IMG/VR virus record: IMGVR_UViG_3300046318_000188
Location: 1 to 64,000 of that record
Strand: one strand, 5' to 3'
Length of the DNA stretch: 64,000 nucleotides
Source: a virus
Below the pieces are notes generated by a model that did no database searches, was not told the DNA's origin, and saw only the letters and a list, made by a program, of their open reading frames with translations. Shown piece by piece: positions 38,494 through 54,272 of the stretch. Position numbers and translations under genes: made by a program. How positions within the stretch are numbered: position 1 is the stretch's first letter; the number at the start of each line of letters is the position of its first letter.

Positions 38494-39059
38494 GTGAATT
38501 TATTACAATCAATACCACAGAAGCGGTAAAAGAAACTCCCAAGATTAGGCAAGAAACAATATTGCCTTTGGTACCAGAAAATCATACATTACTATCACAG
38601 GTAATGCCTCAATGGGACTTTAAAAATCCTCCGATGAATCCAATAGAACTGGCATCAAACCTTGTTGATACTTGCCGTAAAAACCACGGTTATGGATTAT
38701 CTGCCAATCAATGTGGATTACCATATCGTGTATTCGTAATGGGATATGACCAAGAGTTTGTGGCATTTTTTAATCCAAAGATTATTTCCACGGAAGGTGA
38801 ATGTCACATGATAGAAGGATGTTTATCTTTTCCATTTTTGGCATTAAGGATTACCAGACCAGAAATCATTAATGTGGAATACCAAGATTATGAAGGTAAT
38901 ACCAAAACATCTAAGTTTGCCGGTATTTCCGCAAGATGTTTTCAACATGAGCTTGACCATATGAATGGTATCGTGTATACTAGTAAAGTTAAACCTATGG
39001 CTATGCAAATGGGTATGCAGAAACGAAATAAAATTTTAAAGAAATTGAAACTTAAATAA
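38490..39059 (+). CDS. def: Peptide deformylase
   Basis: GLSANQCG, EGCLS, QHELDH. Confidence 0.93.
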   Translation: MSEFITINTTEAVKETPKIRQETILPLVPENHTLLSQVMPQWDFKNPPMNPIELASNLVDTCRKNHGYGLSANQCGLPYRVFVMGYDQEFVAFFNPKIISTEGECHMIEGCLSFPFLALRITRPEIINVEYQDYEGNTKTSKFAGISARCFQHELDHMNGIVYTSKVKPMAMQMGMQKRNKILKKLKLK

Positions 39060-40324
39060 TGGCAACTCCAATTGAATTTGTAGAAGAACAATGGGAAAAA
39101 TGGTCAGAATCCAACCCTCCTTCTAAATTTGAACATATCGATGAAGGTCATATGAAAGAAGTCCTTATCAAGGATTTAACATATGCTTCACAAATGGATG
39201 TTCGTGAATATACTCTATACCAAAAATGGTGTGAAGTGAAAGAGAGATATCCTGTACATGAAGTTTCTACACTATTCGGACAAGATGTTCAGATGGTGGA
39301 TCCCGAACAAAGAAAATTGGTTGACAAGGTTAAGAAAAACTTTTGGATGCCAGAAAGTCCAGATGATTATGAGAAATTGAAACCTGTTATGGTTCTTTCA
39401 AATGGTACTGGTGCTGAAACTTGGAATGCCGTTCGTACCTTTTCTTCCACTATGAAGAACAATAGTAACATTGGCCGTAATCTGTTTTACATTCTTACCG
39501 ATGAAGTAACTGGCAAATATCTTGGAGTTATTTGTATCTCCTCAGACTTCCTGGACTTGACTCCAAGAGATAATGCAATAGGATGGTCGAGAGATATTAA
39601 AACACAGCAGCACATGATTAATCATACTGCAATTGGATCCACAATCGTTCCTCTACAACCACTCGGTTTTAATTACATGGGTGGTAAGTTATTGGCATTA
39701 ATGTGTTTATCTGATACAGTTCAGAAAGATTGGAAGCGACAATATGGTGATACATTGGTTGGAGTTACTACTACTTCTCTTTATGGCAATACTAAGTCTG
39801 GCGGTCTATCTCAATATGATGGACTAGAACATTGGAATAAAATGGGATTCTCCTCAGGTTCTGTGGCATTTGAACCGAGTAGAGCAACCAAAAAATTAGT
39901 ATTTGATTGGATTAAAGAGAATCACACTCGCAAATATTTTGAATGGTGGGAAGCAAAGAATCAACAAGGCCTTCCACTTAAGCGTGACCATAAAAATCGT
40001 TCTTTGAATTTTGCTTATTCTAAACTTGGTATTCCAAAAGAATTAATTCGTACAGAACATCAGCGTGGTATCTATTTTAGTCCGTTATACAATAACACTA
40101 ATGAATTTCTCCGTAAAGAAATTACAGATGAGCAGTTGGTAAAATCATTTGATACCAGCGAAGAAGCTTTATCTACTATTTGGAAAACAAAATATGCCAA
40201 AGGTAGAATCCGTCAATTACAGAAAAAGAATAATGTTTCATATGAAACTCTTTTCTATGACGATTTAATTGAATTATCTTGGGAAGAAACCAAGGCAAAG
40301 TATTTGCCACAAGTTGGCAGATAA
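39059..40324 (+). CDS. DUF4338 / Druantia DruA-like protein
   Basis: P.GFNYMGGKLLAL and TTTSLYG..SQY resemble DruA-family motifs (recognised by eye). Confidence 0.55.
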   Translation: MATPIEFVEEQWEKWSESNPPSKFEHIDEGHMKEVLIKDLTYASQMDVREYTLYQKWCEVKERYPVHEVSTLFGQDVQMVDPEQRKLVDKVKKNFWMPESPDDYEKLKPVMVLSNGTGAETWNAVRTFSSTMKNNSNIGRNLFYILTDEVTGKYLGVICISSDFLDLTPRDNAIGWSRDIKTQQHMINHTAIGSTIVPLQPLGFNYMGGKLLALMCLSDTVQKDWKRQYGDTLVGVTTTSLYGNTKSGGLSQYDGLEHWNKMGFSSGSVAFEPSRATKKLVFDWIKENHTRKYFEWWEAKNQQGLPLKRDHKNRSLNFAYSKLGIPKELIRTEHQRGIYFSPLYNNTNEFLRKEITDEQLVKSFDTSEEALSTIWKTKYAKGRIRQLQKKNNVSYETLFYDDLIELSWEETKAKYLPQVGR

Positions 40325-46219: not shown

Positions 46220-46669
46220 ATGAGTATTACAATTAAAAATCTTGAGGGTGCATTGGCTGGCGAATCCATGGCTCACATCAAGTATCGTTATTTCGCTAAG
46301 ATTGCTCGTGAAGAAGGATTTGAAGATGTTGCAAAACACTTTGAACATACAGCAGAACAAGAGATTCTCCATGCATGGGGACATCTTGAACTTTTAATTG
46401 GTAAACCTTCCACTAAAGAATGTTTAGAAAAAGCCATTGAAGGTGAAACATATGAATTTACCACAATGTATCCTGATTTTGAAAAAGAAGCAATCTTTGA
46501 AGGCAACAATGAAGCAGCTGCTGAAGCTCGTTTACAGGCAGAAGAATCAAAAGAACATGCTGAACAATTTATTCAAGTGTTACGAAAAGCCGAAAAACGA
46601 TTCAAAGCATTAAAAGGTGTTGAAGAACGCCATGCAAATGCCTATAAAAAAGTATTGGAGAACCTATAA
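46220..46669 (+). CDS. rbr: Rubrerythrin (ferritin-like di-iron domain)
   Basis: NLEGALAGESMAHIKYRYFA; EILHA; GETYEFTTMYP; ESKEHA. Confidence 0.92.
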   Translation: MSITIKNLEGALAGESMAHIKYRYFAKIAREEGFEDVAKHFEHTAEQEILHAWGHLELLIGKPSTKECLEKAIEGETYEFTTMYPDFEKEAIFEGNNEAAAEARLQAEESKEHAEQFIQVLRKAEKRFKALKGVEERHANAYKKVLENL

Positions 46670-46803
46670 TGGAACAAAGACACGTTTGTATTGTATGTGG
46701 TCATGTCCACGATGAAAAGACTGAAGGTAAATGGGAAGATTTACCAGACAATTTTGAGTGTCCTGAATGTGGTGTAAGTAAAGAAGATTACGTTACTGAA
46801 TGA
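46669..46803 (+). CDS. Rubredoxin (44 aa, not in ORF track)
   Basis: MEQRHVCIVCGHVHDE..WEDLPDNFECPECGVSKEDY: two CxxC; TAATG coupling. Confidence 0.9.
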   Translation: MEQRHVCIVCGHVHDEKTEGKWEDLPDNFECPECGVSKEDYVTE

Positions 46804-47842: not shown

Positions 47843-47922
47843 GTGCTTGATAAATATTGGTAAGTGTGATATAATTTAATTCGAAATGTGCTTATTGGGT
47901 CAACTTATTAAGGAGAGACCTA

Positions 47923-48420
47923 ATGCAGTTAAGTATAGTCGGTTGTCCCGATAAAAAACATTTCCGCCCGTTTGTAAAAAGGGCTGCCTTATTTTACGCT
48001 TCCGAATTGATTAAACCTAAGATGTTAGAAAACATCTTTTTGAGAATTAAATTTAGTTCTAAGATTGAAGCTCATGGATATGCCTCTGTGATAGAGTTCA
48101 GTAGAAGTAATAAACCAAGACAGTTTGAAATTGAATTACATCCTGGTATCGGCGCAGCAGAAATATTAAAAACACTCAGTCATGAAATGGTGCATATTAA
48201 GCAATACATTTATGGTGATGTTAATTTAAATCTGACCAGATGGAAAGGCAGTAAAGTTTTAGAACCTGATTATTGGGTTCAACCATGGGAAATAGAAGCC
48301 TATGGTATGCAAGCAGGACTATTTACAAAGTTTGCAGTAAAAGAAAAATTATGGAATATATTTGATGATATGTGTGATCCTGATAGTCCGATAGAAATGA
48401 AACCATTAGGTTGGAAATAA
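47923..48420 (+). CDS. HExxH putative metallopeptidase
   Basis: TLSHEMVHIKQY...QPWEIEAY. Confidence 0.7.
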   Translation: MQLSIVGCPDKKHFRPFVKRAALFYASELIKPKMLENIFLRIKFSSKIEAHGYASVIEFSRSNKPRQFEIELHPGIGAAEILKTLSHEMVHIKQYIYGDVNLNLTRWKGSKVLEPDYWVQPWEIEAYGMQAGLFTKFAVKEKLWNIFDDMCDPDSPIEMKPLGWK

Positions 48421-48421
48421 A

Positions 48422-48443
48422 TGTTGCTAAAAAGCAACAGTAT
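48422..48443. promoter_or_regulatory. Operator-like palindrome TGTTG-N8-CAACA(GTAT), copy 1
   Basis: Same motif recurs at 49233-49254, each upstream of a promoter. Confidence 0.5.
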
Positions 48444-48465
48444 TTGGTAAATAATTACAAAGTTG

Positions 48466-48494
48466 TTGACAATTGAGCATATATACTATATCAT
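48466..48494 (+). promoter_or_regulatory. Sigma70-type promoter P1 of tRNA locus
   Basis: TTGACA-17-TATCAT. Confidence 0.75.
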
Positions 48495-48531
48495 ACACAG
48501 TATTGAATAAATTAATTAAGAAAGAAATAAA

Positions 48532-48633
48532 ATGTTGTTTGTAACGAAACCTTTATCCATGCAGTCAGAGTATCGCACACCGAGCAATTGGCCAGCGATT
48601 GGCTTTGACCATGCCTCAGGGGTTCGTGTATAG
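48532..48633 (+). CDS. Putative attenuator leader peptide (33 aa) MLFVTKPLSMQSEYRTPSNWPAIGFDHASGVRV
   Basis: ORF between promoter and terminator; 3' codons complementary to terminator 5' arm. Confidence 0.7.
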   Translation: MLFVTKPLSMQSEYRTPSNWPAIGFDHASGVRV

Positions 48634-48666
48634 AACAAAAGTAATTTCCTTTCACACACGAACCCT
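48619..48666 (+). promoter_or_regulatory. Antiterminator helix
   Basis: GGGTTCGTGT (48620-29) is the perfect complement of ACACGAACCC (48656-65), which overlaps the terminator stem. Confidence 0.75.
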
Positions 48667-48694
48667 AGTCTAAACAACTAGGGTTTTTTGTTTT
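48661..48694 (+). terminator. Intrinsic terminator (attenuator) upstream of tRNA array
   Basis: AACCCTAGT-ctaaaca-ACTAGGGTT then TTTTGTTTT. Confidence 0.85.
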
Positions 48695-48705
48695 CCAGTT
48701 TCAAA

Positions 48706-48761
48706 TTACTAGACACTAAAATTTCAGTCTAGTAACGCTCTCTAAAAATTTAAGTAGTAAC
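48706..48761 (+). promoter_or_regulatory. Hairpin + boxA-like element (rrn-type antitermination signal)
   Basis: TTACTAGAC/GTCTAGTAA stem, then CGCTCTCTAAAAA-TTTAAGTAGTAAC. Confidence 0.55.
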
Positions 48762-48764
48762 TAT

Positions 48765-48838
48765 TGAGATATAGTGTAACGGTAGCACCACGCACTTTGA
48801 CTGCGTTAGCATAGGTTCAAATCCTATTATCTCTACCA
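48765..48838 (+). tRNA. tRNA-Gln(TTG)
   Basis: Cloverleaf, ACGCA-CT-TTG-AC-TGCGT, CCA. Confidence 0.9.
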
Positions 48839-48840
48839 AT

Positions 48841-48934
48841 GGAAGGTAATGCAGCGGGGATGGTCCTGCGACTGGCCTTGAAAACCAGGTTCTGCCTAAA
48901 AGCGGATGGGGTTCGACTCCTCTGCCTTCCGCCA
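48841..48934 (+). tRNA. tRNA-Ser(TGA), probable 8/4 fold
   Basis: Long variable arm, G73, CCA. Confidence 0.85.
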
Positions 48935-49057
48935 TATTGAAGCATACTGCGGTGGTGTTACATATTATATCTAGTCAATATAATATGCCTATGCTAAGAG
49001 TATGATTAAATGTTCCGACAGCCTTAGACTAAGGTTCATTAGTGTGCTTCAATATGG
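48932..49057 (+). ncRNA. Long-stem RNA cassette 1
   Basis: CCATATTGAAGCATACT / AGTGTGCTTCAATATGG terminal stem. Confidence 0.65.
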
Positions 49058-49232: not shown

Positions 49233-49335
49233 TGTTGTACCAAAACAACAGTATCAAAAATAGTTCTTGTGGTATTTTTTGGTTCGTGTATAATAGTTGT
49301 TCTGTTGTAAAGTTCTTTAAAAATTAAGTAGTAAC
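49233..49335 (+). promoter_or_regulatory. Promoter P2: palindrome copy 2, TTGTGG-16-TATAAT, boxA-like
   Basis: TGTTG-N8-CAACAGTAT; TATAAT 49289-94; AGTTCTTTAAAAATTAAGTAGTAAC 49311-35. Confidence 0.6.
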
Positions 49336-52252: not shown

Positions 52253-52326
52253 GCCTCGGTAGTTTAATAGTAGAACACCGCTCTTACAAAGCGAAGACGG
52301 CGGAGCGTTACCGCAACGAGGTACCA
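52253..52326 (+). tRNA. tRNA-Val(TAC), non-canonical T-loop
   Basis: CGCT-CT-TAC-AA-AGCG; T-loop AGCGTTA; CCA. Confidence 0.75.
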
Positions 52327-52873: not shown

Positions 52874-52902
52874 TTGACAAAGTTGTATAAGTATAGTATA
52901 GT
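52874..52902 (+). promoter_or_regulatory. Sigma70-type promoter before tRNA-Gly cluster
   Basis: TTGACA-17-TATAGT. Confidence 0.75.
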
Positions 52903-53495: not shown

Positions 53496-54272
53496 ATGAA
53501 AAAATCACTATTAGCAGTAATGTTGGTTGCATCAGGTGTAGTGTCAGCTGCAGAAGTATTTGATGGTAATCTTACAGGCAATATGACTTTAGCAAGTAAC
53601 TACGAATTTCGTGGTATTAGTTTAAGTCAAAATGGTCCTGCAATTCAAGGTGGTATCGACTACGCACATAGTTCAGGTATTTACATCGGTAACTGGAATT
53701 CCAGTATGCGTGGTGTTCCAAACATGAACAATGATGACATCGATAGTAATAGTGGTACACAATCAAATCTATATGCTGGTTGGCGTAAAGATGTTTACAA
53801 AGGCATTATTGTTGACTTAGGTACTATTAGTTACCTTTATCCTACCGCAACAGCCGGTGGTTCAAAAACAAATTACAGCACAAACGAAGTATATGCCGGT
53901 TTAGGTTATGGTCCTGTTTCTGTCAAGTTCAGCCAAACAACCTCAAATTACTTTGGTGTTAACAACAGTTCTGGCACACAATACTACCAAGCTGACATCA
54001 AACAAAGTTTAGGTGCTCTTGCATCACAACTCAAACCATTAAGTGTTGTTGCACATTATGGTCATACATCAATGGCTGGTAACGGCAACAGTAATTTGAA
54101 TTACAATGACATGAACATTGGTTTAGTATATTCATTCCCAGAGCAATGGGACTTAGGTGTTCGTTACTACACCAATTCATCTATGACAAGCACATTCCAA
54201 CAATATAATAGTTGGAATGGTACCAAGTTTTATGGTGATTCTGTTGTAGCAACATTGACAAAAACGTTTTAA
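53496..54272 (+). CDS. TorF / TIGR02001 (Gcw_chp) putative outer-membrane porin
   Basis: Signal peptide; SNYEFRGISLSQNGPAIQGGIDY; terminal Phe. Confidence 0.85.
   Translation: MKKSLLAVMLVASGVVSAAEVFDGNLTGNMTLASNYEFRGISLSQNGPAIQGGIDYAHSSGIYIGNWNSSMRGVPNMNNDDIDSNSGTQSNLYAGWRKDVYKGIIVDLGTISYLYPTATAGGSKTNYSTNEVYAGLGYGPVSVKFSQTTSNYFGVNNSSGTQYYQADIKQSLGALASQLKPLSVVAHYGHTSMAGNGNSNLNYNDMNIGLVYSFPEQWDLGVRYYTNSSMTSTFQQYNSWNGTKFYGDSVVATLTKTF

Follow-up and report, generated by a model that had tools for sequence, protein, structure and literature searches.

We analysed a 64,000-nucleotide stretch of viral DNA (hereafter the window), which covers positions 1 to 64,000 of the 121,872-bp virus record IMGVR_UViG_3300046318_000188 and belongs to an uncultured lake phage, a T4-like myovirus according to its Pfam matches (gp20 portal, gp23 capsid protein, T4-type terminase, tail sheath and family B polymerase). 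Between 48466 and 48694, a promoter, a short open reading frame (ORF) and an intrinsic terminator follow one another and lead into a long array of tRNA genes, and a first-pass annotation of the sequence had proposed that this arrangement is an attenuator in which an 'all-codon' leader peptide gates the tRNAs. The element is real and conserved, and we consider it probable, from its sequence and from folding models, that it acts as a ribosome-mediated (leader-peptide) attenuator, which would control the transcription from the leader promoter into the phage tRNA genes through feedback from decoding speed. Its parts are the following:

48466..48494, + strand: sigma-70-type promoter TTGACA-17-TATCAT, matching 11 of 12 consensus positions, which would drive the leader transcript
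48532..48633, + strand: leader ORF of 33 sense codons and a TAG stop, with 19 different amino acids and a weak purine-rich Shine-Dalgarno region
48535..48553, + strand: segment 1 (anti-antiterminator), within codons 2-8, predicted to pair with segment 2 when no ribosome is present
48558..48613, + strand: central hairpin (codons 10-27), present in all window folds and possibly an RNA polymerase pause structure
48618..48638, + strand: segment 2, made of the last four codons and the stop codon, with its core GGGGTTCGTGT at 48619-48629
48654..48666, + strand: segment 3, shared by the antiterminator (as its 3' arm) and the terminator (as its 5' arm)
48660..48694, + strand: intrinsic terminator (3:4) with a 10-bp stem (48660-48686), a 7-nt loop and a T6-G-T4 tail

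For the window itself, every element listed at first pass was recovered: the promoter stands at the place given for it, the peptide encoded by the ORF is exactly as claimed, a recount again gives 19 of the 20 amino acids (Cys is missing) and 29 distinct codons, the terminator stem is followed by a T run up to 48694, and the two antiterminator arms are perfectly complementary. Indeed, GGGTTCGTGT (48620-48629) is the exact reverse complement of ACACGAACCC (48656-48665), and the latter overlaps the terminator 5' arm. The internal hairpin noticed at about 48564-48609 is part of the minimum-energy fold. In addition, the DNA runs X3, X4 and X8 span 47900-48890 identically and display no population variants.

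When compared to 33-codon windows of the phage's own ORFs, the leader is unusual both for its distinct amino acids (P = 0.005-0.006) and for its distinct codons (P = 0.001), and its codon-adaptation index is low (0.446 versus 0.70, P = 0.001). We nevertheless rejected the codon diversity and the rare codons of the window as evidence for coding, because a structured non-coding RNA read in any frame would also be codon-diverse and rich in rare codons. Coding is shown by the comparative data given below and not by these codon statistics.

Folding was carried out on three transcript lengths per element, for the 22 elements (the relatives are described below) with enough sequence. The fold of the 195-nt window transcript has a z of -5.07, and none of 200 shuffled sequences folds as well. 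In transcripts of the leader alone, the 5' part (segment 1, codons 2-8) pairs with segment 2 around the central hairpin in all 22 elements, the segment 2 core being paired with a mean P of 0.81 (0.89 in the window) at a mean z of -2.65. In transcripts that extend into segment 3 and stop short of segment 4, 2:3 takes over as the minimum-energy fold of most elements, the window included (2:3 hairpin of -17.7 kcal/mol, z = -4.71), with no such switch in the relatives L084, L206 and L106; folded alone, the antiterminator region displays free energies of -13.3 to -18.5 kcal/mol and a mean z of -3.95 across the 22 elements. The full transcript finally returns to 1:2 together with the terminator 3:4, at about -13 kcal/mol (window terminator -13.6 kcal/mol, z = -4.16). 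Tool folds of the window, L059 and L457 agree with this three-state picture, and a central hairpin is also predicted in the short-form leaders, where it arises from different sequences. According to these models, the four-segment fold would correspond to a classical 1:2 / 2:3 / 3:4 attenuator, in which the terminating ribosome would sit on segment 2. Four structural features of an attenuator are thus found together, namely the ORF, the terminator, the predicted 2:3 pairing and the predicted 1:2 pairing.

Leader frame and pairings in relatives

Relatives were sought among uncultured viral and metagenomic contigs through the upstream 165-aa gene, through DNA patterns and through the alignment of leader peptides. 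This yielded 26 distinct versions of the element, all from uncultured T4-like freshwater phages, and these fall into a long form with 8 distinct versions of 32-38 codons (the window, L100, L088, L097, L082, L107, L456 and L457) and a short form with 18 distinct versions of 22-26 codons, whose peptides start with MKN, MKT, MNK or MTN. Both forms are homologous at the N-terminus (F-T-K/N-P-S), have a single Trp codon in common, and finish with GGG GTT CGT, one further codon and the stop. As for the individual searches, the metagenome pattern scan added three short forms (L168, L206 and L261) among the matches listed (at least 120), the pattern GGGGTTCGTYTGTAA returned 63 stretches with one new real element (L043), and a pattern placed on the start of tRNA-Gln returned 62 stretches with no new leader. 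In the genome-contig pattern scan, none of the matches listed (at least 120) was real once a T run and a tRNA close by were required, a result that is uninformative on absence from bacterial genomes. Note that L086/L104, L091 and L099 were dropped as unrelated GC-rich matches. Among 50,697 records of cultured phages, neither a similar leader peptide nor similar DNA was found (best E about 1, in unrelated genes).

The conserved short ORF that the first-pass annotation expected upstream of the tRNA arrays of related phages is indeed found in the alignment. Across 24 distinct elements (18 short and 6 long), the leader frame contains 0 stops, compared to 40 and 35 in the other two frames, and the frame of L456 and L457, which stand outside these 24, is open too, so that it is open in 26 of 26 versions. 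The leader ATG is invariant in the comparison of short and long forms, the short forms fall into five length classes that are every one in frame, and MAFFT places only gaps in multiples of three between the ATG and the stop. At the same time, the peptide drifts (55% identity to the window leader for L107, and 64% for both L456 and L457), although the short-form peptides retain conserved N- and C-terminal motifs (MKN..., W and GVRL). A frame that is kept while its peptide drifts fits a regulatory leader ORF better than a functional protein.

The signals ahead of the ORF differ among loci. The long-form relatives L012 and L082 have the same promoter layout as the window, and L456 carries AAGGA 8 nt ahead of a GTG start. 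Of the 18 short forms, 14 have a TATAAT/TATAAA element whose end lies 5-6 nt upstream of the ATG. We also observed at short-form loci TATAAATA or TATATAAT at 5-6 nt before the leader ATG, where the -35 element is often missing, and TATAAATA stands 5 nt before the leader ATG in L457 (L457 2970-2985). We take TATAAATA to be the T4 late-promoter consensus, and some leaders may be transcribed from such a late-type promoter and translated as leaderless mRNAs. The short-spaced messages would then be nearly leaderless, or else coupled in translation to the upstream gene, the stop codon of which is a few nucleotides distant.

The end of the ORF is conserved in another manner. Indeed, GGGGTTCGT is invariant in 18 of 18 short forms and in five window-like long forms, its third-codon positions included, and invariant wobble positions at the end of an ORF argue for a constraint at the RNA level. 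The arms were expected to covary at first pass, and this holds for the terminator, in which two stem pairs are altered in both partners (14 cells) and pairing holds in 96.7% of cells, a level reached by none of 500 shuffles, but not for the 2:3 core of the short forms, which never varies and for which covariation is therefore uninformative. Compensating changes are seen among the long forms L107, L456 and L457, which carry altered versions of the segment 2 core. In L107, the C-terminus of the peptide is wholly different and yet a new 10-bp 2:3 complementarity is present, GGGTTTTGTG with CACAAAACCC; this cognate duplex reaches -16.4 kcal/mol, compared to -9.3 to -11.0 kcal/mol when its segment 3 is combined with segment 2 of nine other elements. 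In L457, segments 2, 3 and 4 are all altered together, with 12 bp in 2:3 and 10 bp in 3:4.

The position of the element relative to the tRNAs is just as regular, since every element with downstream sequence stands immediately before a tRNA block. Upstream tRNAs also occur, with one at about 1 kb in L059 and in L071 and two at 1.0-1.6 kb in L457. Of the 17 short forms with downstream sequence, 15 have only 5-10 nt between the end of the T run and the first called tRNA, and the remaining two (L095 and L261) have, about 10 nt after the T run, a tRNA-His-like sequence without an ARAGORN call. We observed that this sequence resembles the tRNA-His called by ARAGORN at the same place in L083. A gap of 5-10 nt has no room for a separate promoter, and the first tRNAs would therefore be transcribable only by read-through of the terminator.

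The long forms have 53-129 nt between the terminator and tRNA-Gln. In the window, the stretch between 48494 and 48957, spacer included, holds no + strand promoter-like site according to the promoter scan, and in L457 a TTGACG...TAATAAT site was seen by eye within the spacer. Downstream of the terminator, the window contains the following features:

48706..48761, + strand: spacer between terminator and tRNA-Gln, with a 9-bp hairpin and a boxA-like sequence, kept in long forms
48765-48838, + strand: tRNA-Gln(UUG), called by ARAGORN, the first tRNA behind the attenuator
48841-48930, + strand: long-arm tRNA, tRNA-Ser(UGA) by eye, matched by Rfam only, with no ARAGORN call
52253-52323: tRNA-Val(UAC) by eye, with an unusual T loop, matched by Rfam only and missed by ARAGORN

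The tRNAs follow the terminator, as noticed at first pass, with 27 called by ARAGORN from 48765 and two more by Rfam, and with these two the array of the window covers all 20 amino acids. Note that the match at 48841-48930 scores 38 bits against the tRNA-Sec model, which is under the cut-off of that model. We also observed that this tRNA-Ser-like sequence (48846-48934) shares 88.8% identity over 89 nt with an unannotated region of Pseudomonas phage PHB09. The likeness of the spacer sequence to boxA is putative; it reads TGCTCTTTGACAA in L107, and a second copy of hairpin and boxA-like sequence follows the next promoter (49311-49335). An rrn-type boxA acts on the nascent transcript, where it is bound by NusB/NusE, and the spacer suggests a possible Nus-type processive antitermination of the tRNA transcripts.

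Another repeat links the element to the array, since the last part of the leader ORF holds a 12-mer, GGTTCGTGTATA (48621-48632), of which an exact copy at 49281-49292 forms the spacer and -10 region of a promoter before tRNA-Glu. The corresponding promoter of L024 and L063 holds TGGTTCGTGTATAAT. Segment 2 may be derived from a promoter or may act as a -10-like (sigma-dependent) pause signal.

Leader codons and the proposed switch

The claim of an 'all-codon' leader holds for the long forms but not for the short forms, which display a biased composition. The four diverged long-leader lineages use 19/33, 20/33, 20/32 and 20/38 distinct residues per codons (P = 0.005, 0.0004, 0.0004 and 0.002, respectively), when compared to a null mean of 14-15 in windows of the phage's own proteins. 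The residues shift position while the full set is kept and, as an example, His and Cys are placed differently in the window and in L457. Behind the long leaders, the arrays encode tRNAs for 18-19 amino-acid species in four of the five cases with enough downstream DNA. Twelve short leaders have 2 kb or more of downstream sequence, and 11 of these precede arrays that cover 4-11 amino-acid species, two being called in L261. In the central parts of the short leaders, Thr (2.1x), Asn (2.2x), Ser (1.8x), Trp, His and Cys are over-represented and Asp is missing. Of 222 central residues, 107 match the leader's own array, compared to 95.0 after permutation of the arrays (P = 0.005). A short leader never lacks Ala, Pro, Ser, His, Cys, Tyr, Asn or Thr when its array has the tRNA for that residue, and Glu and Arg break this rule. 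We conclude that the leader likely senses decoding speed over many codon classes; that each leader exactly mirrors its own tRNA set is only partly supported.

The data show the anatomy, its conservation, the in-frame evolution, the alternative folds and the compensating changes; from them we infer that the ORF is translated, which way the switch works and what stalls the ribosome, and these would work together as follows. RNA polymerase would start at the promoter (48466-48494) and transcribe the 33-codon ORF. If the leader is left untranslated, 1:2 would form and segment 3 would be free for 3:4, so that transcription would stop at 48694. If translation is fast, the ribosome at the stop codon would cover segment 2 and termination would again result. 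A ribosome stalled in about codons 2-25 would instead break 1:2 and leave segment 2 free to pair with segment 3 (about -18 kcal/mol versus about -13.6 kcal/mol for the terminator), the terminator would be blocked, and the polymerase would then read into tRNA-Gln and beyond. The tRNAs made in this way would relieve the stall and close a negative feedback loop. Codons about 2-25 lie upstream of segment 2, and in the model this geometry would allow stalls at many codons; the codon-25 limit derives from the leading edge of the ribosome, which reaches about 12-13 nt past the A site. As the long leaders hold 19-20 amino acids, tRNA synthesis should rise when almost any class of codons is decoded slowly.

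On one point the models contradict the first-pass annotation, which held that a lack of translation also allows read-through. Segment 1 is predicted to sequester segment 2 throughout the 22 folded elements, so that an untranslated leader should terminate, and read-through would need a ribosome that has started and stalls before about codon 25. The same behaviour is known from trp superattenuation, in which an untranslated leader terminates.

A broader version of this reading takes the long leader as a pan-amino-acid decoding gauge, a message of 32-38 codons that would check every tRNA class and let replacement tRNAs be transcribed upon the shortage of any. We put it forward tentatively and regard it as possible rather than probable. 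Codon-usage mismatch late in infection, host shut-off or defences that cleave tRNAs, anticodon nucleases among them, could each bring about such a shortage. If true, the element would be the first attenuation-based homeostat of tRNA supply and a built-in sentinel against tRNA-targeting immunity.

Competing explanations

Several observations weigh against an attenuator driven by translation. Regarding initiation, only the purine-rich AAGAAAGAAA precedes the start codon of the window, a Shine-Dalgarno region as weak as the first-pass annotation had cautioned, and most short forms would need leaderless or coupled initiation. Regarding the pairings, a column-wise count on the invariant 2:3 core of the 18 short forms shows only weak covariation, RNAalifold recovers only the terminator from the short-form MAFFT alignment, and G-U pairs permit cross-pairing, which keeps the cross-duplex matrix from being cleanly diagonal; L107 and L457 therefore count as two supportive lineage events and not as a statistical proof. 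The relatives also share phylogeny, so that their counts are not independent.

The codon data are open to similar objections. No leader class contains a run of one codon, which is the regulatory-codon feature of attenuators, and without such runs the pause at one hungry codon may be too short. The long form L082 combines a 19-amino-acid leader with tRNAs for only 8 species in 11.5 kb downstream; the binomial P of leader versus array ranges from 0.0002 to 1 among individual elements, with 4 of 17 below 0.05; and the central hairpin (ACATCA with TGGTGT), rather than codon choice, may account for the Trp, Cys, Thr and Ser enrichment of the short leaders.

In addition, promoter-like sites inside the array limit what the attenuator would control. 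The downstream promoters named at first pass were confirmed by the scan in part, as it lists sites at 52874 and 52647/52669, together with one at 48957, but not the site at 49267, although a TATAAT was seen by eye at 49291-49296 and relatives hold a homologous TTGACA-17-TATAAT promoter. As for transcripts, a 151-nt RNA-library contig identical to the window spans 48706-48838, i.e., the spacer upstream of the mature tRNA-Gln, which is a weak hint that the tRNA-Gln precursor begins upstream of the spacer, at a depth of 2 and with DNA carry-over possible in the library. In the RNA contigs of the one run, none lies upstream of 48706, and no inference is drawn from this.

Relatives that keep the terminator without the ORF had been named at first pass as speaking against its proposal, and at least four exist (L004, L024, L027 and L063), none of them among the 26 ORF-bearing versions. 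A consensus promoter is placed after the terminator in L004, L024 and L063. L027 has neither an ORF nor a promoter after the terminator and a tRNA directly behind it, so that plain leaky read-through can suffice. This case lends itself to the alternative that survives best, although we regard it as unlikely, in which the element is an independent small gene for a peptide or a small RNA (transcript of roughly 130-190 nt), the tRNAs are made by leaky read-through and from internal promoters, and the pairings are non-regulatory. Its own promoter, its strong terminator, the conserved peptide motifs of the short forms and the sites inside the array would all suit such a gene. It accounts poorly, however, for wobble positions that stay invariant in the last codons while the rest of the peptide drifts, for the L107 leader, whose C-terminal peptide is replaced and whose RNA complementarity is re-created, and for segment 2, antiterminator and terminator pairings that are mutually exclusive in 22 of 22 folded elements. 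Moreover, a promoter stands upstream of the terminator only where the leader ORF is present, and the lack of a similar peptide or DNA in the cultured-phage records also speaks against it.

We consider a translation-independent RNA switch less probable still. Here a tRNA, a small ligand or a protein, for instance a phage factor or Nus factors acting at the boxA-like sequence, would bind the leader and thereby choose between terminator and antiterminator, with the reading frame as a by-product, and both the strongly structured leader and the boxA-like sequence after the terminator would be compatible with it. T-box riboswitches bind tRNA directly, need no translation, report tRNA charging and, like the phage element, choose between terminator and antiterminator; the bulge with which they bind the acceptor end contains UGG, and UGG is invariant in every leader. 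However, an Rfam search at E up to 1 matched only tRNAs and no family, T-box included, within 48466-48694. An RNA switch would also leave unexpected the absence of in-frame stops in 24 of 24 elements, the in-frame indels, the invariant ATG and the fixed 5-6 nt spacing to the -10 element, and it offers no RNA-level rationale for 19-20 amino acids in four lineages.

That a chance ORF and a chance complementarity merely lie beside the ordinary terminator of the upstream gene is hardly credible, even if the region is short and AT-rich and the same type of terminator ends upstream genes in ORF-less relatives, given the conservation across 26 distinct sequences and the covariation, frame, folding and coverage statistics.

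Known systems and surrounding genes

Leader-peptide attenuators are well known from amino-acid operons, with trpL and hisL, the multivalent thrL and ilvGMEDA leaders, and also pheST. Like the phage element, they display a promoter-proximal short ORF, 1:2, 2:3 and 3:4 segments and an intrinsic terminator, and the end of the ORF overlaps segment 2, so that stalling favours the antiterminator. Unlike them, the phage element would control tRNA genes rather than biosynthetic or synthetase genes. In addition, its leader has no run of a single codon, unlike those of amino-acid operons, and instead holds 19-20 amino acids (long form) or is rich in Thr, Asn and Ser (short form), and many of its members appear leaderless.

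Other systems share part of this logic. A leader-peptide transcription attenuator is described for pheL (PMC3082878). In mycobacteria, stalling on the upstream ORF (uORF) of the whiB7 attenuator leads to antitermination, and the uORF responds to the depletion of many amino acids, tRNAs and synthetases, its coding sequence setting the specificity (PMC10274678); however, this uORF is alanine-enriched and controls a transcription factor, in a non-phage context and with no tRNA genes. In Escherichia coli, toiL (topAI-yjhQ) is reported as one short ORF that senses many translation stresses by stalling at different positions (PMC12121999), but it works through occlusion of a ribosome-binding site and Rho-dependent termination, with no intrinsic terminator and no tRNA genes. 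The trn operon of Anabaena is a long tRNA array induced by translational stress (PMC8421152), and thus resembles the phage element as a spare array switched on when translation is impaired. It differs in that the array is cellular, not viral, and is repressed by a protein, TrcR, at the promoter (PMC10272220). A word search found 'attenuat', 'leader peptide' and 'terminator' with 0 occurrences in PMC8421152.

The first-pass annotation knew of no phage system like this one, and our full-text literature search, with a word search in PMC10264068 and PMC8421152 (main texts only), likewise found no paper on the attenuation of phage tRNA genes. The element would be a variant of a known mechanism, leader-peptide attenuation, with an unprecedented target. 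The control of phage tRNA genes is largely unknown and the reason for carrying them is still debated, with codon compensation and escape from tRNA-cleaving defences as the candidate reasons (PMC10264068, PMC11464382 and PMC11555353). If the translation-coupled switch is true, tRNA supply would be sensed and regulated during infection, a simple cis element would predict the decoding problems that a phage expects, and attenuation, known for 50 years from amino-acid operons, would act on RNA genes too. The element is short and portable and could serve as a synthetic sensor of decoding speed.

Upstream of the element, the conserved 165-aa gene (47923-48420) contains an HExxH motif, and a Pfam search of its product gave zero matches. 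In cultured phages, its matches are distant (30-42% identity) and all belong to T4-like phages, whose hosts are Stenotrophomonas, Caulobacter, Sinorhizobium, cyanobacteria and Methylophilales; a remote homologue from a cyanophage carries the annotation WLM protease domain protein.

Further genes of the window were noted in passing. Inside the tRNA region, 53496-54272 encodes a 258-aa protein with a signal-peptide-like N-terminus and a match to Pfam Gcw_chp (E = 2.5e-41), a bacterial family of unknown function. At 39059-40324, a 421-aa protein matches the Druantia defence family DruA (Pfam, E = 3.2e-21). Finally, two neighbouring ORFs at 46220-46803 resemble, by eye, a rubrerythrin-type protein and a rubredoxin (CxxC...CPxC motifs), and rubrerythrin/rubredoxin-like genes likewise lie beside the tRNAs of L090.

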